From NCBI GenBank assembly GCA_038229495.1, contig JBBROJ010000006.1, positions 7,038 to 71,037 on the forward strand: a DNA stretch of 64,000 nucleotides, given 5' to 3'. A program made the position numbers and the translations under genes. The DNA is from Chthonomonadales bacterium (GTDB taxonomy: Bacteria; Armatimonadota; Chthonomonadetes; Chthonomonadales; CAJBBX01). This document shows positions 12,717 to 59,546 of this stretch, one piece after another (the first letter of the stretch is position 1; the number at the start of each line of letters is the position of its first letter). Under the pieces are notes generated by a model, which was not told the origin of the DNA, did no database searches, and was given only the letters and a program-made list of their open reading frames with translations.

Positions 12717-12717
12717 C

Positions 12718-12760
12718 GGGTCGTTGGGTCGTTGGGTCGTTGGGTCGTTGGGTCGTTGGG
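12718..12760 (+). repeat. tandem 8-bp repeat GGGTCGTT x5.4, starting 2 nt after the binding-protein stop codon
   Basis: Perfect copies read directly from the sequence. Confidence 0.9.
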
Positions 12761-12830
12761 AAAGGCAGTCGACGGGTCAATTTGTAAATTGGTCAACGGG
12801 ACGTTATTATTGCTCGCGTGACAGAAAGCC

Positions 12831-12859
12831 GGCCCCCGCTCTGAATGAGAGCGGGGGCC
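12831..12859. terminator. GC-rich hairpin between convergent genes (candidate bidirectional terminator)
   Basis: GGCCCCCGCTC / 7-nt loop / GAGCGGGGGCC, followed by GTTTCC. Confidence 0.55.
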
Positions 12860-12901
12860 GTTTCCTATGTAGCTGATGCGACCGTGTCATGCCGCACGCC
12901 C

Positions 12902-19611: not shown

Positions 19612-20883
19612 CTATCCGTCTCGTTGACCGGGACGCAGCAACATCTCGGAATCGGATTCGCGCGCTCCTGCCACGGGTCGCAGGAGCTTGTTCTCGTCGG
19701 CCATCGTCCCATCCGCCGCGCGAAGCAGTGTTCTGCCCGGGCGCTCCTGCTTGGCGCGCAGCCGCAGCACCGGCAAACATACCTCCGCTGCCTCTTTAAC
19801 GCGCTTCTCTCCGGTCGTCTTCGCCTCTCTTTTCGCCAACCGCTCCACAAAAGGAAACGCGCTACTGTCGCCCACCTGTTTGAACGCCTGAAGAATGGCA
19901 ACACGGAATGCAATTTGCTTCTCTGTGGCCGGCCGCAAAAAGCTGCGAGCATCTTTATACAGCGGGTTTTCGAGGGGCAGGCTGAGACAGTAGCACAGCC
20001 TGGCGCGGTGTTGTTCATCCAGAAGAGCTGAATCGCTAGCCTTAAGACGAGGCAGAAGATCGATGAGAGCCTTCTCGGATATCTCGGTAGTCTGCTTATC
20101 GTCCGTCTTCCAAACGTCGATTAGTGGGCCTATTGAACGCACGTCGAACTCCCCGGCCAGAGACGAGGCCATTTTCCGCCTCCGCTCGCGCAAGCCCCGT
20201 CTTGACGGCAGTAGATGAAGTAGTGGCAGGCCGATTCCATAGACTGCTATCAGCACAGAGAAGATCGTGCCCTTGGACTGATCAGTCACGAAAAGAAGGG
20301 TTATTAGCCCAATGAGAAGACCAACTATTGGAATGGCGACGGCGAGGCGGCGTGCAGATCGAGAGTGCCTGCGCGCCTCCTCGCTGAGCATTGCGCGTGT
20401 CGCTTCCATGATTGGGTCTTCCAGGTCCGATTCGCGTCCAACGACTATCTCGCGAGAAAGAAGTATATCGATGGTCTGCTGAATCGCTTGCGACTCCAGA
20501 GATTGGTCCATGGCGTTCACTACGAATGGAGGGTGAAGCGGTTTCACGGCCTGTTCGGGTTCAATCGCGGCGGCGGGAATCAAAGAAGAGAAGGGTGTCC
20601 TCCAGTTATCTCGTCTTATAGGGCCATTCGTGCCCGTTCTAGAATCCCGGAATAAGCGCTCAATCCAGCTCGGAGGTTGTATATGCCAAAACACATTTGA
20701 TCTTGTGGGTGCAATAAACGGCCTGGTCATCCGGTCCATCAGCGCCGAGCAAGCGAACAGCCTCTCCCGATGCTTTCTGAAGAAGCGGATCACGCTAAAG
20801 TCACTATCCTGCAAACACCCCGCAAATTCGATACAACTCGTCGGTATGAGGCGAATCCTCGTTAGTCCTTTGGGAGCAAGCAA
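19612..20883 (-). CDS. hypothetical membrane protein (two TM helices, HEAT-like C-terminal region)
   Basis: 423-aa ORF. TM segments LAVAIPIVGLLIGLITLLFV and IFSVLIAVYGIGLPLLHLL. The true start is uncertain (internal Met candidates exist). Confidence 0.45.
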   Translation of the reverse strand: MLAPKGLTRIRLIPTSCIEFAGCLQDSDFSVIRFFRKHRERLFACSALMDRMTRPFIAPTRSNVFWHIQPPSWIERLFRDSRTGTNGPIRRDNWRTPFSSLIPAAAIEPEQAVKPLHPPFVVNAMDQSLESQAIQQTIDILLSREIVVGRESDLEDPIMEATRAMLSEEARRHSRSARRLAVAIPIVGLLIGLITLLFVTDQSKGTIFSVLIAVYGIGLPLLHLLPSRRGLRERRRKMASSLAGEFDVRSIGPLIDVWKTDDKQTTEISEKALIDLLPRLKASDSALLDEQHRARLCYCLSLPLENPLYKDARSFLRPATEKQIAFRVAILQAFKQVGDSSAFPFVERLAKREAKTTGEKRVKEAAEVCLPVLRLRAKQERPGRTLLRAADGTMADENKLLRPVAGARESDSEMLLRPGQRDG

Positions 20884-31156: not shown

Positions 31157-31606
31157 ATGTTCCATATGAACCGACCGCGCAGTTACAACTATATAAGCTC
31201 AACGTGTCTGTGGCTGTTCGTGGCTGCGTGCATTGTCGTAAATCGTGCTCCCGCGCAAGCGGACTGCCATGGAATGCGCCAGCCGCTGACCGCCGCAGGC
31301 TCGCATTCGTGCTGCGTTGTCAAGGCGGAATGCGCCTGCGAATCACCGGTGGCGCATACTAGCCTCCTCACCAAAGTTGTTCGTGCCGGTTCCGCTGGCT
31401 GCCCCTGCCTGAAGGCTCCGGTTCAGGAGCAGATTCCCGTTGCAGACCAGTCACGCACGGTTGTCGTCGCGGGGCCGGTCTCGCAGGCTGTGCGCCTTCA
31501 CGCAGTGGACGCGCCGCTCGCGCGCCTCGCCCCGTACTCCTGTTCGCTGCCTCGCGGTTCGCCGCCTGCTCTTGCCTCCCCTCGCGCACCACCTTTCCAG
31601 GGCTGA
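31157..31606 (+). CDS. exported Cys-rich protein of unknown function (first gene of the copper island)
   Basis: Signal peptide ..CLWLFVAACIVVNRAPAQA, then CHG, CC, CAC and CPC motifs. Confidence 0.5.
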   Translation: MFHMNRPRSYNYISSTCLWLFVAACIVVNRAPAQADCHGMRQPLTAAGSHSCCVVKAECACESPVAHTSLLTKVVRAGSAGCPCLKAPVQEQIPVADQSRTVVVAGPVSQAVRLHAVDAPLARLAPYSCSLPRGSPPALASPRAPPFQG

Positions 31607-31685
31607 TTCCGTCTCCGGCACATAACGCCGGGTAAATGGGGCCTGCCGCCCCACCGAATCAACTCGCTACAGGAAAGGTTTTCTC

Positions 31686-32318
31686 ATGTTCTCCCAATTT
31701 TCCCAATCTGTGCGCGTCTTCGGACGCGGATTTGCGGCCGCTGCCGCCTTCGTCGTCGTCGCCCCTGCCGCCGTTCGCGCGGAAGAAGCAGGTTCGTTCA
31801 CCTGCCCGGTCCTTGGATCGAAGATCGAGTCGGTAACCAAGGACACGCTCTCCGCGGACTATAGGGGCGTCCGGTACTACTTCTGCTGCGCCTCCTGCAA
31901 GCCGCAGTTCGAGAAAGACCCGGCCAAGTTCCTCAAGTCCACCACGAACAAGGACAAGGTGATCGGCGCGTCCCTCTTCGACCCTATCTCCACGAAGCGT
32001 CTCGACCCCGATAAGGCCGCCGCGCACAGTGACTACAACGGCGTGCGGTACTTCTTTTCCACTGCCGACGAGAAGAGATCCTTCGACAAGGAGCCGAAGA
32101 AGTTGGCTTTGACCCCGGAGAAGGACGTGTTGTTCTGCCCGGTCAGTAACGAAACGGTCGACTCCTATGCGGAGGCGTCCGACTACAGTGACGTGAAGGG
32201 AACGCGCTACTACTTCTGCTGCGCGGGCTGTAAACCCAAGTTCGATCAGAACCCGGATAAGTATCTGGAGGGACTGGACGCCCGCATCAAGGCCGCAAAG
32301 AAGAAGAGCGACAAGTAG
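31686..32318 (+). CDS. exported protein with three YHS/TRASH-type metal-binding repeats
   Basis: Signal peptide. Repeats: GVRYYFCCASCKPQFEKDPAKFL; GVRYFFSTADEKRSFDKEPKK (Cys-less); GTRYYFCCAGCKPKFDQNPDKYL. Confidence 0.8.
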   Translation: MFSQFSQSVRVFGRGFAAAAAFVVVAPAAVRAEEAGSFTCPVLGSKIESVTKDTLSADYRGVRYYFCCASCKPQFEKDPAKFLKSTTNKDKVIGASLFDPISTKRLDPDKAAAHSDYNGVRYFFSTADEKRSFDKEPKKLALTPEKDVLFCPVSNETVDSYAEASDYSDVKGTRYYFCCAGCKPKFDQNPDKYLEGLDARIKAAKKKSDK

Positions 32319-32354
32319 CCTCGCGGCCGCGCACCTGAAAGAAGGGAATTCACC

Positions 32355-32948
32355 ATGAAGACGACGACATCCATAAACGGCTTGCGACACACGCCCGCGC
32401 TGCTTGGACTTACGATTGTCGCGCTCGCCAGCATCCCAAACCTTCCGGCCCGGGCACATATCGGCCATTGGCTGCCGGTATCCAATAACAACCCGCGAAC
32501 GGTGGCGGCCAACGACCTCAAAACAGCCGAGCAGACAGCGACTCACGGTACGATATCCGGCGACAAGAAGACGCTCACCTTTACTGAAAAGGCAATCACC
32601 TTCGTTGTGGAGACCGGGCCGGATGACGACATGCTGTCATATCGGATCGCCGGACTGCGCAATCCGACCGTCGTCCTCCCACGCGGCGCGGTCGTAACCG
32701 TGCTGTTCGTGAACCGTGACGGCGATATGACGCACGACTTGCGCTTTACCGCGGCCCATGCGCCGTTCCCGATGGAGCCGAACCGAAAGGACTCCGTTGG
32801 CAGCGCAACGCTCGTCCATGCCGACAAGTCGGTCCAGCACGCCGAGCAGTTCACAATGCGCGCGGAAAAGGCGGGCGACTATGCCTACCTCTGTACGGTA
32901 AAAGGCCATGCCAAAGGGGGCATGTTCGGGGTCCTGCAAGTCAAGTAA
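32355..32948 (+). CDS. type-1 (blue) copper protein, cupredoxin fold
   Basis: Signal peptide. Type-1 ligand pattern H (DMTHDL) ... YLCTVKGHAKGGMFG (C-x4-H-x4-M). Confidence 0.75.
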   Translation: MKTTTSINGLRHTPALLGLTIVALASIPNLPARAHIGHWLPVSNNNPRTVAANDLKTAEQTATHGTISGDKKTLTFTEKAITFVVETGPDDDMLSYRIAGLRNPTVVLPRGAVVTVLFVNRDGDMTHDLRFTAAHAPFPMEPNRKDSVGSATLVHADKSVQHAEQFTMRAEKAGDYAYLCTVKGHAKGGMFGVLQVK

Positions 32949-33035
32949 CCGCGCGCATCTGGAGCAAGACAGACCGCTTCGCTGCCGTTCGGCCTTAATG
33001 TGTCGGACGGTAGCGGATGGAGCATTAAATATACC

Positions 33036-34280
33036 ATGAAGAACGAGAACGAAAAGGTAGACCGCAGACAGTTTCTCTCGATGGCCGGGCTGACGGGCGC
33101 CGGCCTGATTGCCGGCGGCCAGGCAGCCGAAGCTCAGCACGAGAATACTCACCCAATTCAAAAGCCCGATTCCTGGCCCTCTCAGTTTGTATTGGCAGAG
33201 ACGGCGCCCAGGTATGCGCCGCGCGACATGCCAAAGCCGGGCGATAAGATCCACGAATTCGATATCGAAGTCACCGTGGAAAAGATCGAGATTCTGCCGC
33301 TGGAGGAGCACCACTTCTATACATTCAACAAGTCGCTCCCTGGGCCGTTGATCCGCGTCAAAGAAGGCGATTGGGTCAAGGTGAATCTCATCAATAAGAC
33401 ACATGACTTCCATACCATCCACTGGCACGGAATCTACGTGCCGTGCGAAATGGACGGCGTACCGCTGGGAACGCAGTATCCGGTCGGCTTTAACCAGACG
33501 TTTACCTATCTCTGGCGGGCCCAGCCTGCGGGCACGCACTTCTACCACTGCCACAACATGACGAACATGCACATTCAGGCGGGACTTTACGGCGCGCTCA
33601 TTATCGATCCGGAGGACGAGGACCCGATCCAAAAAGCGTTCCCGTATGAACGCGAGTATACGCTGATCCTCAGCGAAGTGGACACCGATTTTCTCCGCGA
33701 ACAGATCAACGAGATGCTGGAGATGGGAGTCAGAATGGACCGGATGAATGCGTCCGCCAAGCTCATGCAGAAGATGGATGGCCGCATGATGGGATGGTTC
33801 GCCAATAAGGAGGCGTTCCTCAAGGCGGTAAAGGACGGCTGGATTCCCCCCTACCACCGCAGCCGAACGGGACCGACCCGGCGTATCGAGCCGAACTTCT
33901 TCCTCATCAACGGACGGCCCTATCCGATGACCGAGCACATGCACATCAAACGAGGAGAAAACATCCGCGTGCGGATGATTAACGCCGGCCTCATGCCGCA
34001 CTTCATGCACCTGCACGGACATGACTTCTGGCACGTGGCGCACGACGGCTCGCCTCTGGCTTCACCGGTCCGGGCCAATACGATTCCGGTCTATCCCGGC
34101 TCGACGACGGACATCGTGGTCCAGGGCACGAACCCCGGCCACTGGCACTTCCACGACCACAGCGACCTGAGCATCATGAACAACGGAAAGTCGCCGGGCG
34201 GCATGATGACGATGCTGATGTACGAGGACGCGGAAGAGGCGGGCTTCAAATTCAAGGAGATTATCGCCCTCGACTCCTGA
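33036..34280 (+). CDS. Tat-exported multicopper oxidase (small, two-domain-like) with Met-rich insert
   Basis: Twin-arginine signal VDRRQFLSMAGLTGAGLIAGG. HxH motifs: HTIHWHG, FYHCHNMTNMH, HFMHLHGH, HWHFHDH. Met-rich segment MLEMGVRMDRMNASAKLMQKMDGRMMGW. Confidence 0.85.
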   Translation: MKNENEKVDRRQFLSMAGLTGAGLIAGGQAAEAQHENTHPIQKPDSWPSQFVLAETAPRYAPRDMPKPGDKIHEFDIEVTVEKIEILPLEEHHFYTFNKSLPGPLIRVKEGDWVKVNLINKTHDFHTIHWHGIYVPCEMDGVPLGTQYPVGFNQTFTYLWRAQPAGTHFYHCHNMTNMHIQAGLYGALIIDPEDEDPIQKAFPYEREYTLILSEVDTDFLREQINEMLEMGVRMDRMNASAKLMQKMDGRMMGWFANKEAFLKAVKDGWIPPYHRSRTGPTRRIEPNFFLINGRPYPMTEHMHIKRGENIRVRMINAGLMPHFMHLHGHDFWHVAHDGSPLASPVRANTIPVYPGSTTDIVVQGTNPGHWHFHDHSDLSIMNNGKSPGGMMTMLMYEDAEEAGFKFKEIIALDS

Positions 34281-34374
34281 CCGGCATCGAGACGCCATCG
34301 GGCGCTCGTCGTCAGGCGCTTGATGAGGCTTGATGAAGTCGGCAGCCTTGTCTGCTATCGGGCATTCTTTACGC

Positions 34375-35634
34375 ATGAAGAGGAGACATGTTGTGAATCT
34401 GACGGAAAATCCCGGCCGCATATTGAAAACGGCGCTGGCGCTGGCCATATCGACCCTACCGACGTTCGCGCATGGACAGGCGCAGCGCACGCCCGTTCCT
34501 GAGAAGCCCAGTGTCGCTCCGCAGATCGAGGTAGACGGAACCGGCATTGCCACGCTGGAAGGACAATCGCCTCGTATCACGCTGTCGAGCGGCAATCGCT
34601 CAAGCGCCAGCCGGATCAATGTTTCCGATTCGGCCATCCTGCTGGGCGCTTCGGAGAGGCTCTTTCGCAAGGGCGGAATCGGCAGCTTCGTAATAGGCAC
34701 GACTTCCACTGAAACGGACGCGACCCCGAGCGGCACCGGTATGTTCCTGCACCAGATGTTCGTGAACTACCAGACCCGTTCATCGGAGGCGACGCTCGGC
34801 AGGACCGACGTTGCCACGCGCCTTATCGACTTCCCCACGATTCGGGGCGACGACCTCAACGAATTCGTCAACATGCTAAACCCCTTCTCTAACGGGGACA
34901 ACGTGGAAGAGCATCGGTATAGCGACCAGGCTTCTTTTACGCTCACCCGCAACCTGCGTCACTTCCTGAACTTCCACGCGCAGCATCTTGTGACCAGCAC
35001 AGCCCGGACAATCGGTCAGGGCGGCCTCAATTCTTTCGGCGTGAGCTACCAGTATCAGACGATCCCCGCACTGGAGGTGCTGACCAAGATACCGCTCTGG
35101 GGCGTGGGCTTTGAGCGACAGGATATTGGCCAGGGATTTGGCGGCGCAGCCAATCTTGTCTATGGAGGCGTAGTTTACAATATCCAGCCTGACCCGGTAG
35201 ATCGCATCGACCTGCGCGTCCAGGACATTTACAGCTTCGGCAACGACACGTCCGCCTTCGCCTCGGTTGCGGATACGTTCCGGGCAGCCAACAATACGGT
35301 CGCCGCTTCGCTGCGGTGGCTTCATAGTCCGTTCGGCACCCCCGGTCATCAGGTAGCCCTGACTATCGGCTACAAGAACTACAACAAGGTATCGAACGCC
35401 AACACGCTGGGATTGGCTCTAACCGGCGTAAAGCGACTCGGCGACGGTTTCGACCTGGTGGCTCAGTATTCCTATCATCACCGGCAGCCGGCGTACGCCG
35501 CGACGTTCAGCAACGTTCGCAACGAGCACTCGGTGCAGGTGGGGTTTGTCTTCAACTTCACCAACACCTTCAACCAACACCTGGGACCCCGCCGGTCGCT
35601 GCTCAACTTGCAGCACCAGTACGTTCCCGACTAA
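34375..35634 (+). CDS. putative outer-membrane beta-barrel protein
   Basis: Signal peptide ..ALALAISTLPTFAHG. Alternating-hydrophobicity strands and an aromatic-rich C-terminal strand (VQVGFVFNF). An alternative start is GTG 34393, 6 nt after AGGAGA. Confidence 0.5.
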   Translation: MKRRHVVNLTENPGRILKTALALAISTLPTFAHGQAQRTPVPEKPSVAPQIEVDGTGIATLEGQSPRITLSSGNRSSASRINVSDSAILLGASERLFRKGGIGSFVIGTTSTETDATPSGTGMFLHQMFVNYQTRSSEATLGRTDVATRLIDFPTIRGDDLNEFVNMLNPFSNGDNVEEHRYSDQASFTLTRNLRHFLNFHAQHLVTSTARTIGQGGLNSFGVSYQYQTIPALEVLTKIPLWGVGFERQDIGQGFGGAANLVYGGVVYNIQPDPVDRIDLRVQDIYSFGNDTSAFASVADTFRAANNTVAASLRWLHSPFGTPGHQVALTIGYKNYNKVSNANTLGLALTGVKRLGDGFDLVAQYSYHHRQPAYAATFSNVRNEHSVQVGFVFNFTNTFNQHLGPRRSLLNLQHQYVPD

Positions 35635-35711
35635 TGAATCGGTCCGATGGAGCCGGCAGGCTATTGCCAGCTCCTGGACCATGACAAATATCGCAGAAGA
35701 GGCACACGAAT

Positions 35712-37025
35712 ATGAACGCCGTAAAACACAACATAACAGCACGTCGGGCAGGCTTCCTAACGTTCGCCGCGGCAACAGCAGCGATCGCGCTGTTCCTCGA
35801 AGCGCCAAGCGCATGGGCACAGGACCACTCTGAGCACGGGAGAGGCAGTGATAACAGGGGTGGCTCCGACAAGGAGTCGATGCGAAATGTTTCCCGCCTC
35901 AAGGAGAAGCGCATGCTGACAGTGACTGGCCAGGAAGACTGGGACAGCATGCTGAGCTTCGGGCCCGACTCCTCCATGGCAGAGATGATGATCCAGATGA
36001 TGGTTGGAGGCTCCGGCATGGAGCACATGAAGATGGCGGCCATGAAATCCGGCATGCGCATGGGCAGCATCACAGACCGTGTGCCTATGCTCGGTGCGGC
36101 GAGTGACAAAGGCGCAATCGCTGGCAAAAGCAGCGGCTTCCCGGTGACGGTAACCGTCACACCGAATCCACCGGTCGTCGGCGACAACAAGCTGGATATT
36201 GTCGTAACTGACGCGTCTGGAAAGCCGGTCACGGGCCTGAAGCTCTCATCGGCAGTCGGCATGACCAGCATGGACATGGGCACCGAGCGGCCAAAAGCGA
36301 CCGAAGGCCCGGACGGACGCTACTCGCTCCCCGTCAAATTCCGCATGAAGGGCCCGTGGCGCGTGACTCTCACGAGCGACACGCCAAAGGGGATGAAGAG
36401 CAGCGACGCTGTCAATGTTCCGCTGGATTTTAATGTCGGCAGCAAGGACAAATGGTCCATCCCTGCGGCACGTGCGAAATCCACTGCCGCTGCATCTAAA
36501 GAGCACGCAGCAAAGGAGGCATCTACAAACCAAGCGCCGCATACGTCTGACGCAAAGGAAGGCACGGGGGCGCCATTAGTCAAATTGCCAGAGCAAGCGC
36601 CAGCTCCTCAAAAGGCAATAGCTGCTGCGCCGGAGCTGGCACAGCCTGCGCGCGTTCCATCCACTTCCGCATCGGCCGTGTTAGAGACGGCGACAACGCC
36701 TGCTCCAACGGCCTCATCTGACACCGGAGTCAAGATTGTTCTCGACACCAAGCCAGATGCGGTCAAGGTCGGAAAGAACATCCTCTCGTTTACTATTCTG
36801 GATCCGAGCGGGAAGGCTCTTTCCGGTGCAAAAGTAACGTCTTCGGTCGCTATGACCAGCATGGACATGGGCACGACGCATCCGACGGCGAAAGAGGGTA
36901 AGGGAGGTCATTACACAGCGCCCGTTGAGTTCAGCATGAAAGGCCCCTGGCGAGTTGTCGTCACTGTCCAGGGGAAGGGCCAAAAACCGGCGACGCGCTC
37001 CTTCGACTTCGACGTGAAGAAGTAG
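35712..37025 (+). CDS. exported protein with Met-rich region and two YtkA/FixH-like domains
   Basis: Signal peptide. Met-rich region MAEMMIQMMVGGSGMEHMKMAAMKSGMRMG. Two repeats of ..V(V/K)VG.N.L...(V/I)(T/L)D.SGK...G.K..SSV.MTSMDMGT....A.EG..G.Y..PV.F.MKGPWRV... Confidence 0.7.
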   Translation: MNAVKHNITARRAGFLTFAAATAAIALFLEAPSAWAQDHSEHGRGSDNRGGSDKESMRNVSRLKEKRMLTVTGQEDWDSMLSFGPDSSMAEMMIQMMVGGSGMEHMKMAAMKSGMRMGSITDRVPMLGAASDKGAIAGKSSGFPVTVTVTPNPPVVGDNKLDIVVTDASGKPVTGLKLSSAVGMTSMDMGTERPKATEGPDGRYSLPVKFRMKGPWRVTLTSDTPKGMKSSDAVNVPLDFNVGSKDKWSIPAARAKSTAAASKEHAAKEASTNQAPHTSDAKEGTGAPLVKLPEQAPAPQKAIAAAPELAQPARVPSTSASAVLETATTPAPTASSDTGVKIVLDTKPDAVKVGKNILSFTILDPSGKALSGAKVTSSVAMTSMDMGTTHPTAKEGKGGHYTAPVEFSMKGPWRVVVTVQGKGQKPATRSFDFDVKK

Positions 37026-37159
37026 GCGCCTGGACGTACGACGAAGGCGAATTGGGTTGATACCTATCTGAAACGCACGGGCACACGGCCGCAGGAGGCT
37101 CCCGCCCGCCCGCCGCAAGAGCCGATGGGCTGATCTTAACAACAATGGAGATACGAATT

Positions 37160-37282
37160 ATGCCTGAAAAACCACATCGTTACGAACAGGAAGACCCGCG
37201 CCACGACCATCCTCAGGGACGTGAAGGGCACGGGCACACGCACGGCTTCGTAGACCCCTCCATTGCGCCGACGCCTGCTTGA
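37160..37282 (+). CDS. His-rich 40-aa micro-protein (possible remnant of a cation-transporter N-terminus)
   Basis: ATG 37160 lies 9 nt after GGAGA. Sequence: MPEKPHRYEQEDPRHDHPQGREGHGHTHGFVDPSIAPTPA. The stop TGA is at 37280-37282, inside the SD of the next gene. Confidence 0.4.
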   Translation: MPEKPHRYEQEDPRHDHPQGREGHGHTHGFVDPSIAPTPA

Positions 37283-37293
37283 AGGAGCACGAT

Positions 37294-38481
37294 ATGAAGA
37301 TGCTGGCAGAGTGCATCCGCCTCGACAAGGACTGCGCGTCCATATGCTGGGAGGCGGCGGGTTACATGAGTCGCGGTTCGCGGCTCACAGCCCAAGTCTG
37401 CCGTCTCTGCGCCGACATCTGCGACGCCTGTGCTCAAGAGTGCGAGAAGCACCAGCCCATGGAGCACTGTCGGCAATGTGCGGAAGCCTGTCGACTTTCC
37501 GCCGAGGCGTGTCGCCGCATGACAGGCGCTGCGGGCTGCGGCCTGACAGAGCCGTGGAAGTCTCGGCGGCGGGCCAGAAACTCCTGGCCCGCCGCTACAA
37601 TCTCGAAGACCGTCATGGCAGTTCGGATAGTATTATTGATCCTGGTTATGGGCGTTGTGGCGCCTGTCTGCGCCACCGCGCTTCCGAAATTTCACAAGGT
37701 CTTCCTGCAGACCTACCAGCCAAAGCCAGGGTCGCCCCTGGGCGAAGCAAAGTGCCTGACGTGTCACGCGTCACCTGGCCCGCCGAAACGTAACTCCTAC
37801 GGCAAACTGGTGGAGGAAACGATACATGGGGCAGGATCGCACGACGAGGTAACTGCTGCCCTGCTCCATAAGATCGAAAGTGTGGACTCGGACGGAGACG
37901 GGTGGACAAACGGACAGGAAATTGCGGAAGGAACACTTCCTGGAGACCCGATAAGCCATCCCCTCGCAACACCTTCATCAAGCACGGCACTTCCGAGCCC
38001 CCAAGTTCCAGACGCACAGCCTGCGGTTTCCAAGCAGTCTTCATCCGGTCTTCAGCGCATGCTGATGCCCAAACATTCGTTCCATCCCATTATCGTTCAT
38101 TTCGCGTTGGCTCTTTTCATATTTGGCGCTACGCTGGAAATCCTTGGTTTACTGAAGCGTCGCCCGAATCTCTCTGAGGCGGGCTTTATGAATATGACAA
38201 TTGGCAGCATGGCCGGCGTTGCCGCGGCCGCCACCGGTCTCGTCGCGGCATACAGGAATGGATTCCCTTGGAAAGGCACTTTGCTCATACACCTCATCCT
38301 GGGCTTAACAGCGGCGCTGGGAATGGCGACGACCGCTTGCTTGGGATACCGGGCGTCTCGCTTCCGGCGAGAACGTTACTCGCGCGTTTACCTAGCGCTG
38401 GTCGTTATTTCCTTGCTGCTCGTGATTGCAGCGGGATTTTTCGGCGGCGAGTTCGTATACACTGAGTTGATGGGAATGTAA
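37294..38481 (+). CDS. fusion protein: Cys-rich four-helix-bundle (DUF326-like) domain, TM anchor, CXXCH haem-c motif, DUF2231-like 4-TM domain
   Basis: ATG 37294 follows GAAGGAG. Cys-rich region CIRLDKDCASIC..VCRLCADICDACAQECEKH..EHCRQCAEACRLSAEACRRM. Then KSRRRARN, a TM helix, and AKCLTCH. Then DSDGDGWTNGQE. Then HSFHPIIVHFALALFIFG, a DUF2231-type start. There is no stop between the parts. An internal ATG lies at 37615. Confidence 0.65.
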   Translation: MKMLAECIRLDKDCASICWEAAGYMSRGSRLTAQVCRLCADICDACAQECEKHQPMEHCRQCAEACRLSAEACRRMTGAAGCGLTEPWKSRRRARNSWPAATISKTVMAVRIVLLILVMGVVAPVCATALPKFHKVFLQTYQPKPGSPLGEAKCLTCHASPGPPKRNSYGKLVEETIHGAGSHDEVTAALLHKIESVDSDGDGWTNGQEIAEGTLPGDPISHPLATPSSSTALPSPQVPDAQPAVSKQSSSGLQRMLMPKHSFHPIIVHFALALFIFGATLEILGLLKRRPNLSEAGFMNMTIGSMAGVAAAATGLVAAYRNGFPWKGTLLIHLILGLTAALGMATTACLGYRASRFRRERYSRVYLALVVISLLLVIAAGFFGGEFVYTELMGM

Positions 38482-38617
38482 GATAACGCTCCGCCGGACA
38501 GACAAGCAGTGACTCACGTGCGCAGGCCGTGTCGACTCATTTAGGCTGCGGTTTCACTCATGCAGACGGGAGCCGCCAGATACCTTGGATAATCGCCAGG
38601 ACGCGAAAGGAAAAGCC

Positions 38618-40039
38618 ATGAAGCGTACCCTACTCGCCACAACTCTGACAGGGGCTCTGCTGTTCGGTCCACGACCGCTCGTCGCTCAGGAGCATCAGCA
38701 TGATCCGGCCAAAGAACCGGCCAAGAAGCGCGGCGCGCAGGAAGAACAGGCGCCCATACCGATGCAGCACGACATGTCCAAAATGCAGCCCTCCGAGAAG
38801 GGCAAGGCCATGCCGCATGACATGAAGCAAATGTCCGGTCACAATATGAGCCACATGCAAGGGATGGACATGATGTCGTCCTTCGCGGGCATCCCCATGA
38901 CCCGCGACGCATCCGGCACTTCCTGGCAGCCGGACAGCACTCCCATGCACGCAAAGCACGAGATGAGCGGTCTCTGGAGAGTAATGCAGCACTACAGCGG
39001 TTTCCTGAGTTATGACAACCAGGGCGGGCCGCGCGGAAGCGATCAAGTACACGGAATCGGCTGGTACATGCTGATGGTCTCCCGTCCGCTGGGCCGGGGA
39101 GAGCTAACGCTGCGCACCATGCTGAGCCCGGAGCCGCTGACCGTGGGAAAACACGGCTATCCGCTGCTCTTCCAGAGTGGCGAGGCGGTGAACGGCAAGC
39201 CGCTGGTGGATGTTCAGCATCCGCACGATCTTTTCATGGAGCTGGCGGCGCGCTACCGCTACAAGCTGGACGACAGGACCGCTGTTTCCCTCTATGTCGC
39301 TCCGTCCGGCGAGCCAGCCATTGGCCCCACTGCATTCCCCCATCGGACGTCGGCGCTGGACAATCCCCTGGCGCCGATCTCGCACCACTGGCAGGACGGG
39401 ACCCATATCACGTTCGGCGTACTGACAGCGGGAATATCTCGCGACAAGTGGCAGCTGGAAGGCTCTTACTTTAACGGTAGGGAGCCGGACGAGAACCGGT
39501 GGGACATAGATTCAATCCGCCTTAACTCCTTTGCCGGGCGGTTGAGCTATAATCCCGGTTCCAATTGGAACCTGCAAAGTTCGTATGCCTATGTCAAGAG
39601 CCCGGAGTCGCTGCGGCCGGACGAGGATGTGCGGCGGACAACGTTGTCCGCAAGCTACAATCGTCCGCTTTCAGAAGGCGGCAACTGGGCAAGCACGTTC
39701 GTCTGGGGACGAAACAGCTCTCACGGATCGAACACCGACTCGCTGTTGCTGGAGACGGACTACAACATCGCGAATCGAAACACGCTGTTCGGGCGGTTGG
39801 AGCACGTTGTGAAGGCAGGCGAGGAGCTGGCGCTTATGCCCACGAATCGCAAGTTTGGTATCACGGAGCTGACTTTGGGCGGCGTCCATGAGTTGACCCA
39901 GGGCCGCGCATACCAGGCGGGAATCGGCGCGGCGGTAACGTTCAATTGGAAGCCGGGCGATCTCGATTCGCTCTACGGCAAGGACCCGATGGGGGTCTGG
40001 GTCTTCCTACGTATTCGGCCCGCGCCTATGGCGCATTGA
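38618..40039 (+). CDS. uncharacterised Met/His-rich outer-membrane barrel protein (paralog 1)
   Basis: Signal peptide. HQHD..MQHDMSKMQ..MPHDMKQMSGHNMSHMQGMDMM. Conserved motifs SGTSWQPDSTPM, HPHD, PISHHWQDGTHI and GRLSYNP. C-terminus FLRIRPAPMAH. Confidence 0.65.
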   Translation: MKRTLLATTLTGALLFGPRPLVAQEHQHDPAKEPAKKRGAQEEQAPIPMQHDMSKMQPSEKGKAMPHDMKQMSGHNMSHMQGMDMMSSFAGIPMTRDASGTSWQPDSTPMHAKHEMSGLWRVMQHYSGFLSYDNQGGPRGSDQVHGIGWYMLMVSRPLGRGELTLRTMLSPEPLTVGKHGYPLLFQSGEAVNGKPLVDVQHPHDLFMELAARYRYKLDDRTAVSLYVAPSGEPAIGPTAFPHRTSALDNPLAPISHHWQDGTHITFGVLTAGISRDKWQLEGSYFNGREPDENRWDIDSIRLNSFAGRLSYNPGSNWNLQSSYAYVKSPESLRPDEDVRRTTLSASYNRPLSEGGNWASTFVWGRNSSHGSNTDSLLLETDYNIANRNTLFGRLEHVVKAGEELALMPTNRKFGITELTLGGVHELTQGRAYQAGIGAAVTFNWKPGDLDSLYGKDPMGVWVFLRIRPAPMAH

Positions 40040-40090
40040 GGACCACCGTCGACGGCGGAACGGCAATAGATCTGTTGCGTATATATTTTT

Positions 40091-40145
40091 CGCCCGTGAG
40101 GACGGTTGGCCGAAGGCCCTTCCGCGAGTGAATTTATTCACTCGC
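40091..40145 (+). terminator. three consecutive hairpins after paralog 1 (twin-hairpin module copy C plus a 10-bp palindrome)
   Basis: CCGT-GAGG-ACGG, GGCC-GAA-GGCC, then GCGAGTGAAT-TT-ATTCACTCGC (40124-40145). Confidence 0.5.
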
Positions 40146-40385
40146 ACGCAGGCGTAACGGGGATTTTGCGAGCGGTCCTACATTAATTTTCGGCGCTACG
40201 TTATGTGGCGCCGTGTTCGTTTCACCCGTTGCCCTACGGCCGTCGAGAGCATTGACAACGTTCTATCAGGTAAGAGGTTTACACTCCAGGCAAACGCTGC
40301 TAGAAGGTATACTGCGGTAAGGATGACGCAAAGCTTCTCATCATATTTCCCAGCCCTATTGCGCATCCAAGACAGAGGAGTTTCC

Positions 40386-42086
40386 ATGAAAGCTAACTAT
40401 ATTTCCGTATTGGTAATTACTGGCGCCGTGCTGGCCACCGGCCTGTTAGCGCAGACAGTCACCGGGAATTCCTATACGGCGGCGCTTAAGACCGATCCTA
40501 AGACCATCCAACCAGGCAAGTCCACGACCCTCGATATCTATATCATGGATTCGACCTCGAAGACTCCCAGCGAAAACCTCACCATCACCGCGTCCTTTAA
40601 TATGCCAGCCATGACGGGCATGACATTGGACCAGCCCAAAGTGACCCTAAGTGACAAGCCCGGCCACTTTAACGTGCAGCTCACGTTCCCCCATGCCGGA
40701 AGCTATAAACTTGCCCTCACGGTCAACCCGACAACCGGGAAGAGCGCCACCCTGTCCTTCAATATCACACCCGGCAGCGCCGGAGGCGCAGCCGTGAAAG
40801 ACATGTCAGGAATGTCAGGAATGTCAGGAATGCAGGGGATGCAGATGAAAGCAAGCCTCGGGAACTGGTTGGCAAGCCGGGAAGGTTCAGGGACGTCGTG
40901 GCAGCCGGACTCTTCGCCGATGTTCATGAAGACGCTTGGCTCGCTGGGAAGATTTGACTTAAGCGCAATGGGAACGATCCAGGGAGGTTACGTAGACGAT
41001 GGCGGTACGCGTGGCGATAGAGGCTTTTTCACCAACTCGATGTTAATGCTCATGGGCCGCCGCGAACTGGGTGGCGGAACCCTCGGCCTACATTTTATGA
41101 CTTCGCTCGATCCCATTATCAACGGCAGACACGGCGTTCCGAATCTCTTTCAAAACGGATTTACAGTCCACGGCGTTGACATCGGCGACCGGAAAGACCC
41201 GCATAATGTCTTTGCGGAAATCGCGGCCAACTACAGCCATCCGCTTTCCAAAGCTTGGACCGGCTTCATTTACGGCGGCCCCGTCGGCGAACCGGCGCTG
41301 GGGAATGTCATGTACTTGCACCGCACGAGCGGCCTAGAGATCCCCGAAGCGCCTATCAGCCACGATTGGTTTGACGGCACCCACATCAGCTTGGGAGTCG
41401 CGACTCTGGGACTTGTTTATCAAGATAAGTGGAAGCTTGAAGGTTCCGTTTTCAATAGTCACGAGCCTTCCAACCTTTACGGCATTGGCAAAGTCGAACT
41501 TAACTCGGCATCCGGTCGACTCAGCTACAATCCGTCCCACGACTGGTCGTTTAGCACTTCCTACGGATATTTGGACTCCGACGTCAATGAACACCGCCTC
41601 ACTTTTGGCGGGGCCTACAGCCACCCGCTCCCCCACGGCGACAATCTTTCCGCGACCGCCTATTTCGGCCAAAATATCGTTCAAGGGTCCGCAAAGTCCA
41701 ACGCATGGCTTGCGGAGGCGACATATTACCACGCTAAGGATGCATTTTTCGCCCGCTTTGAACGAGTTGATAAGGACGAGCTCGTCAATGTGCCGCCCGG
41801 AAACTACACGATCAACAAGCTGCTCTTTGGTGACGTGCACAACTTCTATAGCAAAGCCCAGATCGACTATGGTCTGGGAGCCTACTTCGGCGTCTACAGC
41901 TTCCCGAGTTCCCTAAACGCTCTCTACGGTAAGAACCCGCTCACCTTCGGCGTGTTCCTACGCATCCGCCCGGCTGCTATGCAACACAGCGGAGGATACG
42001 GAGGAGGCATGGCCGACGAACACATGAAGTCCCACGAGATGAAGAACGACAGGATGAACTCTGGCTCCGGCATGGACATGCCATGA
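40386..42086 (+). CDS. YtkA-like domain fused to Met/His-rich outer-membrane barrel (paralog 2)
   Basis: ATG 40386 follows GAGGAG. Signal peptide. N-terminal Ig-like YtkA-type domain (..PGKSTTLDIYIMD..MPAMTGMTLDQP..GHFNVQLTF). MSGMSGMSGMQGMQM. SGTSWQPDSSPM and the same downstream motifs as paralog 1. Tail MADEHMKSHEMKNDRMNSGSGMDMP. Confidence 0.7.
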   Translation: MKANYISVLVITGAVLATGLLAQTVTGNSYTAALKTDPKTIQPGKSTTLDIYIMDSTSKTPSENLTITASFNMPAMTGMTLDQPKVTLSDKPGHFNVQLTFPHAGSYKLALTVNPTTGKSATLSFNITPGSAGGAAVKDMSGMSGMSGMQGMQMKASLGNWLASREGSGTSWQPDSSPMFMKTLGSLGRFDLSAMGTIQGGYVDDGGTRGDRGFFTNSMLMLMGRRELGGGTLGLHFMTSLDPIINGRHGVPNLFQNGFTVHGVDIGDRKDPHNVFAEIAANYSHPLSKAWTGFIYGGPVGEPALGNVMYLHRTSGLEIPEAPISHDWFDGTHISLGVATLGLVYQDKWKLEGSVFNSHEPSNLYGIGKVELNSASGRLSYNPSHDWSFSTSYGYLDSDVNEHRLTFGGAYSHPLPHGDNLSATAYFGQNIVQGSAKSNAWLAEATYYHAKDAFFARFERVDKDELVNVPPGNYTINKLLFGDVHNFYSKAQIDYGLGAYFGVYSFPSSLNALYGKNPLTFGVFLRIRPAAMQHSGGYGGGMADEHMKSHEMKNDRMNSGSGMDMP

Positions 42087-48376: not shown

Positions 48377-48618
48377 ACGGAGCGGCGGATAGCACGGATA
48401 TATACGATGTATAAGTGGAGATCAAGACGGTGAGCCGCCGCGAATTGCGCCTCTGCCAGTTTTGGCAATAATGCAGGATAAACCGCGCGGAGCAGTGAAT
48501 GTGGTTTCGTAACATTACGTACTCTTCAGATTCCGGCTTGCGTCCGGTCATGCGAATTGCTCAAGCTGAAGGCCGCCGCAGCCGCGATCGCTGTTCTCTT
48601 TCCTCAGGAGGATTGCCC

Positions 48619-49632
48619 ATGTCCGTTCAGTCACCTCGAAGCCCGCGTATCTCCGTCGGCGAAGCGGCCGCTGTCTGCGCCATAGTCGGCGTTCTCGGCG
48701 CATCGCTCTTTCCGGTATTTGCCCACGCGCGTGAAGCCTCTCTATCTGCCACCGACATGACCGCGTTCAAGGCGCTTAACCTCGCCGGCTCGCTATACTC
48801 CGAAGACTACGACGAAGATGACGTCTCCGACAAGGCCGTGCACGCCCGCCGCGAGACGAATCGGCCGGGAGGTAATGCGGGCGGCCGAAATCGCGGCGCC
48901 GGAATCGTCTATCACGGCGGCCCCCTGATCCTCGGAACCACGAATGTATACTACATCTGGTATGGTAACTGGTCCGGGAACACCGCTACTACGATCCTCA
49001 CCGATCTCGCAAACAGCATCGGCGGAACACCCTACTTCAATATCAATACAACGTATTACAATGGTAGCAATGTCAAGGTTTCCAATTCAGTTCACTACGC
49101 TGGTTCGACAACGGATAATTACTCGCAGGGCACATCACTCTCTGATTCTGCCGTTCAGGCGGTCGTATCTTCTGCCATCACGACCGGAGCTTTGCCCAAG
49201 GACACCAACGGAGTCTATTTTGTGCTCACTTCGTCGGATGTAACGGCGTCCTCCGGTTTCTGCACGCAGTACTGCGGCTGGCACACCCACGGAACTATCC
49301 TCGGGAGCGACATAAAGTACTCGTTTGTCGGTAATCCGGATCGCTGTCCGTCGTCATGTGAGGCTCAGTCGACGGGTCCCAACGGAAATGCGGGGGCGGA
49401 CGGCATGGCTTCTATCATAGCGCACGAGCTCGAAGAGACGGTTACGGATCCCGATCTGAACGCGTGGTATGACAGCCGCGGCAACGAGAACGCCGACAAG
49501 TGCGCATGGACGTTCGGCTCAACTTATGCAGCCAACGGATCGACAGCCAACATGAAACTAGGATCTCGGGACTACCTTATTCAGCAGAACTGGGTGAACG
49601 CTTCTGGCGGATTTTGCGCAAAGAGCTACTGA
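48619..49632 (+). CDS. secreted EXORDIUM / phosphate-induced protein 1 (PHI-1)-like protein
   Basis: ATG 48619 lies 7 nt after AGGAGG. TM/signal segment. YHGGPLILG..VYYIWYGNW, VYFVLTSSDV..SGFC..YCGWH, VGNPDRCPSSC, NGNAGADGMASIIAHEL. Confidence 0.6.
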   Translation: MSVQSPRSPRISVGEAAAVCAIVGVLGASLFPVFAHAREASLSATDMTAFKALNLAGSLYSEDYDEDDVSDKAVHARRETNRPGGNAGGRNRGAGIVYHGGPLILGTTNVYYIWYGNWSGNTATTILTDLANSIGGTPYFNINTTYYNGSNVKVSNSVHYAGSTTDNYSQGTSLSDSAVQAVVSSAITTGALPKDTNGVYFVLTSSDVTASSGFCTQYCGWHTHGTILGSDIKYSFVGNPDRCPSSCEAQSTGPNGNAGADGMASIIAHELEETVTDPDLNAWYDSRGNENADKCAWTFGSTYAANGSTANMKLGSRDYLIQQNWVNASGGFCAKSY

Positions 49633-56428: not shown

Positions 56429-56548
56429 GCCAAACCAATCGCGTCAATGACATCCAACTCGGCAGGTTGAGCATCTCGCGTCCTGGACTGCTCAACCTGT
56501 CCGTTGCGGCCGGCTGAACGAATGCCTCGTATGTCAGGAGAATGTATC

Positions 56549-58466: not shown

Positions 58467-59546
58467 ATGAAGAACCCGCCGTCCCTCAATGAAGTCCAGC
58501 AGGCTCTCCTCGAAATGAGACAGCCCTACGAGCGCCGTCTCCTCGAGATACAGGATCGGCGCGACCAATTTTTAGCAAACCACCGTCAGTCTACCGCTGA
58601 GGTGGACCCCGTATTCGTCATCAGATCGAACCAGTTGCGCAAACAGGTGCGAGAGTGCCAGCGCGCCGTAGACATGCTGCCTCAATCGGTCTATCGCACC
58701 GTGGTATTGTGCGATCCCGAAACGGAGCAGATGTCAATTGTGGCATTGGTGCGGCACGAGGGTGAAATACCCTCGCTGCAGGTCGGTGAATGGTCGGTGG
58801 CCTGCGTCAGCCCAACTCTCAGACTTTTGCGCAGCGCGGTGGGCGAGGTGATCACCCAGGGTCTGGTTGTTTCCGCCAATGGATCGCCGGTGATGCCGGA
58901 ACCCAAGAGACGTCGGGCGATCGACACGCTGCACGCTCCTCCCCTTAGCGCGCTGGAATTGAAACGCCGTGACCGGGAGGCCCGCCGTCAGAGATTCGAG
59001 CGTTTCATTACAGATCGCAAGAATCGTGAGAAAGAGGTACAGGAGCGACTTTTCCGCCAACGAAAGGCCAGGGAAGATCGAGAGCTCGCCATCCGGGATA
59101 ACCTGCTGCGCGAAGATGAGGAGCGCGAAGAAAAGCGGAAACGAGACCTTGCGGAGTGGGCGCAGCGTCATCGGGCGCAATTGAAGGGCGCGGAGGCGGA
59201 AGACGATCTGGCGGTAGTCAACGGCGCTGCGCCCTCTTTGGATATGGTCGAGCCTGTGCCTGACGAAGACCCTGCACCGGTGGAAGAGGAAGCGCACGTG
59301 CCCCAGGCCACGCCCGAAGATGCCCCCGAATCAAAAGCTGCAGATACGAAAGACGCGAAAGATAGGCTGGATACGAGAGATGCCGGAACCGGGCAAGTGT
59401 GGTGGATACTCACTGGATTCGCGGCCGGCTGTGTTGTGGGACTATTCGTGCTTCCGCATTGGTTCTCGCTCATCGGCTCCCTTTCCGCGGCGGTGACGAG
59501 TCTTCTGCTGAGGCTATCGCCGGGGAGAACAGCGGAGCGCGACTAA
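58467..59546 (+). CDS. hypothetical protein: GreA/GreB-C-terminal-like domain, charged coiled coil, C-terminal TM anchor
   Basis: VYRTVVLCDPETEQMSIVALV..EGEI..VSPTLRLLRSAVGEVI resembles the Gre-factor C-terminal domain pattern. RRDREARRQRFERF..EDEEREEKRKRD coiled coil. TM segment VWWILTGFAAGCVVGLFVL. Confidence 0.45.
   Translation: MKNPPSLNEVQQALLEMRQPYERRLLEIQDRRDQFLANHRQSTAEVDPVFVIRSNQLRKQVRECQRAVDMLPQSVYRTVVLCDPETEQMSIVALVRHEGEIPSLQVGEWSVACVSPTLRLLRSAVGEVITQGLVVSANGSPVMPEPKRRRAIDTLHAPPLSALELKRRDREARRQRFERFITDRKNREKEVQERLFRQRKAREDRELAIRDNLLREDEEREEKRKRDLAEWAQRHRAQLKGAEAEDDLAVVNGAAPSLDMVEPVPDEDPAPVEEEAHVPQATPEDAPESKAADTKDAKDRLDTRDAGTGQVWWILTGFAAGCVVGLFVLPHWFSLIGSLSAAVTSLLLRLSPGRTAERD

Follow-up and report, generated by a model that had tools for sequence, protein, structure and literature searches.

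Copper systems of the Pco/Cop type, for which Escherichia coli pco, Pseudomonas cop, and Caulobacter pcoAB serve as the instances compared here, encode a secreted multicopper oxidase (MCO), an outer-membrane barrel immediately after it, and a periplasmic copper-binding protein. The barrel PcoB has a His/Met-rich disordered N-terminal domain that is required for function and stabilizes PcoA (PMC12509749). In many diderm bacteria without CusCBA or PcoB, the route by which copper pumped into the periplasm by CopA leaves the cell is unclear. This work presents an analysis of a 64,000-nucleotide stretch of DNA (referred to here as the window) from a Chthonomonadales bacterium of the phylum Armatimonadota (assembly GCA_038229495.1, contig JBBROJ010000006.1, positions 7,038 to 71,037). 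Between positions 31157 and 42086, the window carries an unbroken run of ten consecutive called open reading frames (ORFs) on the plus strand, named g1 to g10. We consider this region to be a probable lineage-specific envelope copper-homeostasis cluster, with detoxification as its most likely role, assembled from separable modules.

Eight of the 10 ORFs encode copper-type domains or their partners, whereas the remaining 53 kb of the window encodes none, and copper-family seed proteins match the window solely at 31 to 42 kb by tblastn. Two modules account for most of the region. Module A consists of g1, g4, g5, and g6, with g2 and g3 as accessories, and its core is an MCO gene, the barrel gene g5, and a YtkA gene. 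Module B consists of the barrel genes g9 and g10. Two unnamed barrel families occur in copper loci. The g9/g10 family, which comprises ∼4,800 clusters (50% identity), spans 8 or more phyla, and is also found on plasmids, is a candidate for the missing outer-membrane step of copper export. With names for both families, metal-resistance genes in metagenomes from soil and freshwater could be annotated better.

The MCO-barrel-YtkA core and its accessory genes

The first gene of the core, g4 (33000 to 34280, probable start 33036, 426 amino acids), encodes a two-domain MCO with a twin-arginine motif (RRQFL) of the twin-arginine translocation (Tat) type. It matches the Pfam families Cu-oxidase_3 (E value of 6e-34) and Cu-oxidase_2 (E value of 6e-25), and its best matches in the Protein Data Bank (PDB) are the two-domain MCOs 3G5W (E value of 2e-54) and 2ZWN (E value of 8e-54), with which its HWHG, HCH, and HLHGH motifs align. 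Relative to 3G5W, g4 carries an insert of 71 amino acids (residues 228 to 298) that contains 8 Met residues. The next gene, g5 (34330 to 35634, probable start 34375), encodes an outer-membrane barrel from a family of 203 homologs, none with a Pfam domain, that is apparently restricted to Armatimonadota. For g5, as well as for g9 (see below), AlphaFold2 models were made from homolog alignments, and the resulting folds were compared with the PDB by using Foldseek. The g5 model has a predicted local distance difference test score (pLDDT) of 79 and ∼16 strands, and its top Foldseek matches are general porins (E value of 1e-14). The third gene, g6 (35712 to 37025), encodes an exported protein in which a Met-rich N-terminal region (Met-plus-His fraction of 0.18 over residues 37 to 135) precedes two immunoglobulin-like domains of the YtkA/FixH type. 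These domains match PF13115 in two stretches with an E value of 6.6e-25, and the score of 88 bits for the two copies exceeds the gathering score of 25.9 bits. A single-sequence search of the PDB with g6 returned only insignificant matches.

The neighborhood of g5 is conserved in relatives; an earlier reading of the window made without database searches (the sequence-only reading) had held that conservation in no relative would count against its proposal. In 7 of the 7 other contexts examined (related loci L004, L086, L087, L088, L090, L091, and L092), a two-domain MCO gene stands before the g5 homolog and a YtkA gene after it; in L091, the MCO gene sits two genes upstream of g5. Spacing within the triad is often tight: genes overlap by 4 nucleotides in L090 and are 16 bp apart in L092. 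The triad is adjoined by csoR in L088, L090 (divergent), and L091 and by copZ-copA in L088 and L091. Locus L086 additionally carries a g3 homolog, DUF2231 and cytochrome c genes as separate neighbors after the triad, a YHS protein gene, and a DUF4396 gene, and it reproduces most of the left and central parts of the window cluster. A tRNA-like sequence (GGGGGTGTAGCTCAGTTGGTTAGAGCG...) at about 5090 to 5170 in L086 closely precedes the g1-like gene with which the cluster begins in this locus, and it may hint at mobility of the cluster there. In L090, the most divergent of the triad loci, a Haem_bd protein is encoded after the YtkA gene (9885 to 10409), and farther along (11346 to 13268), a cytochrome c-FTR1 permease fusion is encoded with a cation-efflux protein, in addition to an ArsR-type regulator. 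The Haem_bd and cytochrome c-FTR1 genes indicate that heme and cytochrome partners recur near the triad.

The region opens with g1 (31157 to 31606), which encodes a small exported Cys-rich leader protein of 149 amino acids with 8 Cys residues in the mature part and the C-terminal sequence SPRAPPFQG. Pfam and NCBIfam scans of g1 gave zero matches. Its homologs have in common a signal peptide, the motifs xC[HDQ], CC, and CxC, and an invariant C-terminal SPRAPPF(QG). A g1-like gene stands upstream in six Armatimonadota loci: before the MCO triad in L004 (1778 to 2242), L086 (5257 to 5772), L087 (7117 to 7566), and L088 (6787 to 7245) and before YtkA/barrel genes in L007 (9254 to 9682) and L008 (3791 to 4243). 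Several of these g1-like genes were missed by the source annotations. A Verrucomicrobia counterpart that ends in LAHAPP directly precedes the barrel gene in 13 loci. We also considered g1 as a bufferin-type precursor of a copper-binding ribosomally synthesized and posttranslationally modified peptide; g1 and its homologs have no Pfam match, and a DUF692-type (MNIO) maturase gene is absent from the region and from the related loci listed above.

The second and third genes complete module A. The exported protein encoded by g2 (31686 to 32318) has three YHS/TRASH metal-binding domains, detected in three stretches by PF04945 with an E value of 2.5e-25 and a score of 88.6 bits against a gathering score of 30.3 bits. 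A homolog with 65% identity occurs in L007, and single-YHS genes adjoin the triad in L086 and L091. The product of g3 (32355 to 32948) aligns over its full length with rusticyanin structures (E value of 1.5e-12), and this alignment shows that the C-x4-H-x4-M type-1 ligand site is kept. The rusticyanin equivalog model TIGR03095 scores g3 at 73.5 bits (E value of 2e-20), under its cutoff of 146.7 bits; judged by these scores, g3 is a rusticyanin-like cupredoxin and not an equivalog. Its homolog in L086 is 49% identical.

The g9/g10 barrel family and its link to copper

Module B comprises two paralogous barrel genes. The product of g9 (38585 to 40039, probable start 38618) has a disordered Met/His-rich N-terminal region (Met-plus-His fraction of 0.21 over residues 24 to 108) ahead of a barrel with the hallmark motifs SGTxWxP and DRQHPHD. 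The product of g10 (40386 to 42086) consists of a YtkA domain (PF13115, E value of 1.3e-10, 42 bits against a gathering score of 25.9 bits), a Met-rich (M-S-G)n linker, the barrel, and a Met/His-rich C-terminal tail. Although the ORF opens at 40203, the true start of g10 is probably at 40386, where a predicted signal peptide begins with MKANY. The barrel regions of g9 and g10 are 39% identical. The YtkA-barrel fusion seen in g10 also occurs in L004 and L007; in L007, a Chthonomonadaceae relative, the YtkA-barrel gene is directly followed by a gene (11401 to 12486) for a 361-residue Metal_resist protein (PF13801, Spy/CpxP/ZraP-like), a partner of periplasmic metal-stress type that is absent from the window. 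With the paralogous, Met/His-rich g9 and g10, the domain assignments of the sequence-only reading hold for most of the region: it had also called g2 an exported protein with three YHS domains, g3 a type-1 cupredoxin, g4 a Tat-exported MCO with a Met-rich insert, g5 a predicted barrel, and g6 a Met-rich protein with two YtkA domains.

The g9 model (pLDDT of 72) also has ∼16 strands and a porin-like fold, with a best porin match at an E value of 4e-11. Neither g5 nor g9 belongs to a Pfam family, and profiles built from the barrel alignments of both families find no sequence relative in the PDB. The region does not hold three related barrels: the g5 and g9 families are unrelated, with an hhalign probability of 0.6%. 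All three barrel proteins (g5, g9, and g10) contain zero Cys residues and zero CXXCH motifs.

In a word-indexed search, the g9 family has at least 8,000 homologs, all of them called hypothetical where the source names them. An exhaustive profile search retrieved 4,807 representative clusters (50% identity) at an E value of ≤1e-3 and 1,287 at ≤1e-30, and scanning genomes yielded at least 588 loci, which are spread over 8 or more phyla. Carriers fall into Armatimonadota, Verrucomicrobiota, Gemmatimonadota, Acidobacteriota, Bacteroidota, Alpha-, Beta-, and Gammaproteobacteria, Omnitrophota, and Vampirovibrionales, and the cultured carriers include Mucilaginibacter, Novosphingobium, and Flavobacterium. 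Our literature search found no paper describing this family. Its members share 50 to 60% identity across phyla, with the invariant motifs SGTxWxP, GYPLLFQSGE, DRQHPHD, SGEPALGP..F.HR, APISHHW.D.THI, and GREPD. In the g9 model, SGTxWxP lies ahead of strand 1, and the His-rich motifs lie in long inter-strand segments (residues ∼181 to 216 and ∼243 to 275). Judged from the model, these segments would correspond to L2/L3-like constriction loops, which normally fold into the lumen in porins. In the family, the 60 residues before SGTxWxP have a median Met-plus-His fraction of 0.17 versus 0.083 for the whole protein.

The link of this family to copper comes from its gene neighbors and from its fusion partners. 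For 85 barrel-bearing loci, ORFs were called and compared with copper-family seed proteins. A P1B ATPase gene lies within 3 kb of the barrel in 15 of these loci, in at least 5 phyla; by our estimate, for which no control was computed, a random interval of 6 to 8 kb would hold a copper pump in well under 1% of cases in a genome with 1 to 3 pumps. The 16 ATPases found in barrel loci are all of the copper type (13 with CPC plus MxxSS and 3 with CPH), and HEGxT occurs in none of them. A standalone Csp gene lies directly 3' of the barrel in L003 and L010 (Opitutaceae), L022 (Parafilimonas), and L083 (Mucilaginibacter). On the Pontibacter plasmid pPaks1, where a Csp gene likewise adjoins the barrel, RefSeq annotates in succession a copper P-type ATPase, a hypothetical protein, the barrel (as hypothetical), and a four-helix-bundle copper-binding protein, and on a Sphingobium baderi plasmid, the barrel gene stands amid genes for MerR, glutaredoxin, DUF305, and a heavy-metal ATPase.

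The fusion census covered 270 sampled g9-family members and recorded extra domains on the N or C terminus, which were taken as periplasmic. A duplicated Cys-rich domain without a Pfam match was present in 38 of the 270 proteins, YtkA in 14, a cupredoxin 48% identical to g3 in 5 (e.g., P0285, where it is N-terminal), cytochrome c in 4, and YHS in 2. Domains that the window encodes as free proteins (YHS, the g3 cupredoxin, YtkA, and cytochrome c) are therefore fused to barrels elsewhere, which by the Rosetta-stone argument marks them as probable partners of the barrel. The duplicated Cys-rich domain is ∼90 amino acids long (GRYxCC...C..C...C.C...GKGVCGEC..GW), precedes the barrel, and is found in the nearest relatives of g9 (P0002 to P0005, P0253, and P0380), among others. 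It has no counterpart in the window, and no similarity was detected between it and g1.

Layout of the region and the remainder of the window

Between the two modules, the gene content differs from that given by the sequence-only reading, which had counted eleven genes, including a His-rich micro-ORF and a fusion of a Cys-rich bundle, a CXXCH motif, and DUF2231. The micro-ORF g7 (37145 to 37282, 45 amino acids) is probably no gene: it has zero matches in Pfam and NCBIfam, and a region of Csp homology that begins at 37261 in a different frame runs over its 3' end. That homology marks g8N (37261 to 37563), a 5'-truncated remnant of a Csp3-type four-helix-bundle gene whose own stop codon is missing. 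In tblastn searches with standalone Csp proteins, residues 22 to 109 of the query align to 37261 to 37527 with 57 to 62% identity, and the aligned sequence (HCADACLKE...) begins ahead of the formal start of the g8 ORF. No frame encodes the first ∼21 residues of Csp, which hold the helix-1 Cys motif, and the reading frame of the homology meets a stop codon just upstream of 37261. An intact Csp gene reached by a simple frameshift through g7 is thereby ruled out. Matches to PF03860 (E value of 3e-8) and TIGR04401 (E value of 5e-9) cover the C-terminal half of g8N only. As the helix-1 motif is gone in all frames and no stop codon of its own is left, g8 does not contain a complete Csp3/DUF326 protein. 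From the end of the Csp homology, 31 stop-free codons lead into the next gene.

This next gene, g8b (37615 to 38481), is probably separate, with an ATG at 37615. It encodes a monoheme cytochrome c (one CXXCH) with a TSP3-like DxDxDG motif and a His-rich DUF2231 domain with four transmembrane helices (Pfam E value of 3.9e-18). Its six nearest homologs are 265 to 292 amino acids long, lack Csp, and have a signal peptide (M...ALPKF) that starts exactly at the position of ATG 37615. Since homologs without Csp start there, and since the Csp part is truncated and has lost its stop codon, the fusion in g8 is most likely, as far as the sequences tell, a truncated Csp3-type gene that lacks a stop codon and whose reading frame continues into a distinct gene for a cytochrome c-DUF2231 protein. 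All three of its components (DUF326/Csp, CXXCH, and DUF2231) were thus correctly recognized by the sequence-only reading. As a single protein, the combination of Csp and DUF2231 is unique to the window: among 5.8 billion proteins it occurs only in the window's own P0121, and a metagenome scan gave no second case. Both g7 and the Csp3-like remnant are most likely decay products, judging from their sequences. Alternatively, an assembly error may lie behind the truncation and the missing stop codon; a Logan contig (L089) that is 100% identical to the window starts at 37574 and so does not cover the disrupted site. The sequence-only reading had described the region as entirely extracytoplasmic, with a signal or anchor on every product. 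The N-terminal part of g8 is an exception to this, because Csp3-type proteins carry no signal peptide, and g8N, if translated, would be cytoplasmic. For g8b, a single-sequence search of the PDB gave only insignificant matches, and a literature search found no paper on DUF2231 function. The gene g8b may be a passenger or a redox accessory; its uncertain place in the cluster is supported by the arrangement in L086.

The gaps between successive genes from g1 to g10, at their most probable starts, are 79, 36, 87, 94, 77, 119, -4, 136, and 346 bp. The single-strand run with short gaps described earlier is accordingly intact, with gaps of 36 to 136 bp save for the 346 bp before g10. This last gap holds a perfect 22-bp palindrome (GCGAGTGAATTTATTCACTCGC; 40124 to 40145), which occurs once in the window against 0.18 occurrences expected by chance and could, from its sequence, be an operator for some regulator. 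It also holds the strongest terminator-like hairpin of the region (40191 to 40213), which is GC rich, has 10 pairs of which 7 are G-C, and is followed by a T-rich tail. Because the gap carries both elements, its sequence suggests that g10 forms a transcription unit apart from g9. In the promoter and terminator scan, the overall count does not exceed the shuffled expectation, and Rfam and tRNA scans of the window returned zero matches.

Upstream, the region is flanked on the minus strand by rpmE, DUF1385, prfA, prmC, and a CAP-domain protein gene; downstream are genes for a SASA esterase, a TIM-barrel protein, a ROK kinase, and aspartate kinase. The closest homologs belong to Chthonomonadaceae/Chthonomonadales by source name, and a DUF1559/N_methyl protein is encoded close to the region; both point to an Armatimonadota metagenome-assembled genome, of an uncultured organism, as the most likely source. 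The region had been called an island. Its GC content (0.55 to 0.60) is like that of the rest of the window (0.54 to 0.64), so that it is a cluster and not a compositional island, and base composition gives no support to a horizontally transferred island. The claimed absence of a pump and a regulator holds for the 64-kb window: Pfam searches of the larger ORFs found no P1B ATPase, Cus, CopC/D, PcoB (Pfam CopB), CsoR, MerR/CueR, or CopZ, and tblastn with CsoR, CopZ, MerR, and P1B-ATPase seeds found nothing. It does not hold for the system, given that relatives carry csoR (3 loci) and copZ-copA (2 loci) beside the same core, and the absence here is a matter of genome arrangement. Nor do the genes form one conserved eleven-gene unit, as had been thought; modules that occur apart from one another elsewhere stand side by side here, in an arrangement specific to the lineage.

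Elsewhere in the window, a minus-strand gene (1841 to 5668) encodes a 1,275-residue protein with N6_Mtase, Eco57I, MmeI_Mtase, and TaqI_C domains that resembles a type IIG/IIL restriction-modification enzyme. A plus-strand gene (48499 to 49632) encodes a 377-residue protein with a Phi_1 (phosphate-induced protein 1/EXORDIUM-like) domain (E value of 8e-33), a family known mainly from plants. Long ORFs without a Pfam match (359 to 560 amino acids) lie at 359 to 1639, 5918 to 6997, 19612 to 20883, 56504 to 58186, 58467 to 59546, and 59514 to 60905; in GC-rich DNA, part of these may be spurious.

Function and comparison with known systems

The role in copper handling put forward by the sequence-only reading, with capture and oxidation of Cu(I) in the envelope and passage across the outer membrane, is well supported by the domain content, the MCO-barrel-YtkA synteny, the copper-type neighbors, and the fusions. 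We infer both the substrate and the direction of flux of the system. In the mechanism that we propose, the Met-rich, YtkA (g6), YHS (g2), and Cys-rich (g1) proteins would bind periplasmic Cu(I) and hand it over, and the g4 MCO would oxidize it to Cu(II), with the insert acting like the Met-rich region of CueO. The g5 barrel would provide outer-membrane passage, paired with g4 in the manner of PcoA and PcoB. In parallel, copper captured by the periplasmic Met/His-rich tails or the YtkA domain of g9 and g10 would cross these barrels by a His-lined pore, in which the His/Asp/Glu motifs (GYPLLFQSGE, DRQHPHD, FPHR, SHHW, and THI) may line a copper-selective path. Because the barrel adjoins CopA-type pumps in other phyla, export could proceed in two steps, with a CopA-type ATPase delivering copper to the periplasm and the barrel releasing it to the outside. 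For expression, we infer cotranscription of the cluster genes and regulation through a CsoR encoded elsewhere in the genome. A further, tentative idea, to which we give only a small share of our confidence, is that the g9/g10 family represents outer-membrane cuproproteins or channels of a new class, in which the invariant His/Asp/Glu loop motifs would make up an in-barrel copper site that trades copper, and possibly electrons, with periplasmic modules docked on the barrel or fused to it (YtkA, the rusticyanin-like cupredoxin, cytochrome c, YHS, and the Cys-rich domain). If true, g9 and g10 would be a dedicated, possibly redox-coupled, outer-membrane exit for CopA-pumped copper in bacteria lacking Cus.

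Several observations weigh against a copper-export cluster of this kind. When isolated, PcoB of E. coli acted as an importer (PMC9210255). Any copper gene is nearby in only 46 of the 85 barrel loci (24 of the 44 that are at least 15 kb long), and these loci were picked by similarity, are phylogenetically clumped, and are heavy in Verrucomicrobiota. Two barrel loci on large contigs have unrelated neighbors. Distant homologs of the cytochrome c-DUF2231 protein occur in noncopper contexts, among glycoside hydrolase and unrelated genes. The 346-bp gap with its hairpin and palindrome speaks against a single transcript, and of the 12 matches to the CsoR box ATACCC-N5-GGGTAT in a search that tolerated at most 3 mismatches (14.6 were expected), none is intergenic in the region. 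Finally, the assignment of the His-rich loops rests on a model with a pLDDT of 72, and both loops contain low-confidence segments.

The main alternative, although we regard it as unlikely, is that the cluster serves to acquire copper and to mature cuproenzymes instead of to detoxify: scarce copper would enter through the barrels and be escorted by the YtkA, YHS, and Cys-rich proteins to the MCO and respiratory oxidases, and the P1B ATPases that neighbor the barrels elsewhere would be of the slow, cuproprotein-loading type. The domains of the cluster lend this some weight, as the YtkA/FixH-type domains match FixH and, weakly, the cbb3 oxidase assembly factor CcoH. Relatives of YtkA and FixH act in oxidase assembly, and Bacillus subtilis YtkA/CtaK acts in CuA assembly. 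The window has no efflux pump, the uptake of copper facilitated by isolated PcoB (PMC9210255) points inward, and the RopAe porin has been implicated in inward copper transit (PMC6011978). The contexts of both modules argue for the opposite direction. The unit csoR-copZ-copA, a canonical copper-stress export unit, adjoins the triad in L088 and L091; the g9/g10-type barrel occurs on plasmids inside metal-resistance loci with MerR and P-type ATPases; Csp storage genes adjoin barrels; and a Met-rich MCO insert would be the hallmark of a cuprous oxidase.

A quite improbable explanation is that the region is no functional unit, so that independent and partly decayed copper genes are collinear by chance and g9 and g10 are general porins with incidental tails. 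The modules do separate in relatives, the Csp gene is disrupted, the largest gap holds terminator-like and operator-like elements, and many barrel loci have no copper neighbors. Chance collinearity fits poorly with 8 of 10 same-strand ORFs bearing copper-type domains or partners in a window that otherwise has none over 53 kb, with family barrels fused to the very domains that the window encodes as separate genes, and with His-rich loop motifs that, unlike those of general porins, are extremely conserved between phyla at 50 to 60% overall identity. Very improbable is Fe(II)/Mn(II) oxidation or extracellular electron transfer, in which the cupredoxin, MCO, cytochrome c protein, and porins would form an inter-membrane path and the cytochrome- or cupredoxin-fused barrels would be analogs of Cyc2-type porin-cytochromes: g3 is closest to rusticyanin, some family barrels have an N-terminal cytochrome c or cupredoxin, g8b combines CXXCH with a His-rich four-helix DUF2231 domain, and pairs of an MCO and a porin figure in the metal-oxidation literature, but g5, g9, and g10 have neither Cys nor CXXCH, redox-domain fusions are found in 9 of the 270 members whereas 52 carry YtkA or the Cys-rich domain, the neighbors are copper specific (ATPases, Csp, CsoR, and CopZ), the YHS, YtkA, and Met-rich motifs provide ligands of the Cu(I) type, and g3 falls under the rusticyanin equivalog cutoff.

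Taking the region as an envelope copper-detoxification cluster, we compared its parts with characterized proteins and systems. From the Cus system, no ACR_tran, HlyD, OEP, or CusF match was found in the window ORFs scanned. With respect to the Cue system, the CueO equivalog model NF008205 gives g4 81.5 bits, where its cutoff is 525 bits, and P1B ATPase and MerR seeds are unmatched in the window. The remnant g8N resembles Csp3 (PF03860/DUF326), with 55 to 62% identity over g8 residues 1 to 83 to the standalone Csp proteins encoded beside g9-family barrels in other phyla; it differs in that the first helix is missing and in that the ORF, with no stop codon of its own, continues into a membrane protein. 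Rusticyanin resembles g3 over its full length and in the retained type-1 ligands. CopI, a cupredoxin implicated in periplasmic copper tolerance (PMC13308877), can be set beside g3 by description; no internal His/Met-rich region is obvious in g3. In contrast to the fused porin-cytochrome Cyc2, the barrels g5, g9, and g10 are Cys free, and cytochrome c is fused to only 4 of the 270 family members. General 16-strand porins (OmpF, Omp32, and BpsOmp38), and not PcoB, are the best fold matches of the g5 and g9 models, with TM scores of 0.43 to 0.68; there is no detectable sequence relation, and g9 and g10 differ from them by their invariant His-rich loop motifs and periplasmic metal-binding appendages.

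Among MCOs, g4 is most like the two-domain enzymes of Nitrosomonas europaea (3G5W) and of metagenomic origin (mgLAC, 2ZWN), with which it shares the domain order and the HCH motif of the N-terminal domain. It differs from them by its Met-rich inter-domain insert of 71 amino acids and by its place in a conserved triad, where its partners are a barrel and a YtkA protein; from its sequence, g4 may be a cuprous oxidase. It is distinct from PcoA/CopA, with a TIGR01480 score of 151 bits that stays below the 479-bit cutoff and with two cupredoxin domains instead of three. Like PcoB, g9 and g10 have a disordered His/Met-rich N-terminal domain before the barrel (PMC12509749, PMC9210255). Unlike PcoB, none of g5, g9, and g10 matches CopB (PF05275) at an E value of ≤0.01, and ∼16 strands are modeled for g5 and g9 compared to the 12 of PcoB (PMC9210255). 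Neither CopC nor CopD has a Pfam match in the region or the window, and YtkA domains stand in their place. The sequence-only reading had found the gene set unlike any cop, pco, cus, or cue system, and indeed no gene qualifies as a member of one of them. The likeness that it had missed lies in gene order, as the succession of oxidase, barrel, and copper-binding protein functionally parallels pcoABC and copABC. By this analogy, module A is most likely a functional counterpart of PcoA, PcoB, and PcoC, a PcoABC-like module whose parts are all nonhomologous to theirs: an MCO of the two-domain type, a barrel with a porin-like fold, and a protein with YtkA domains.

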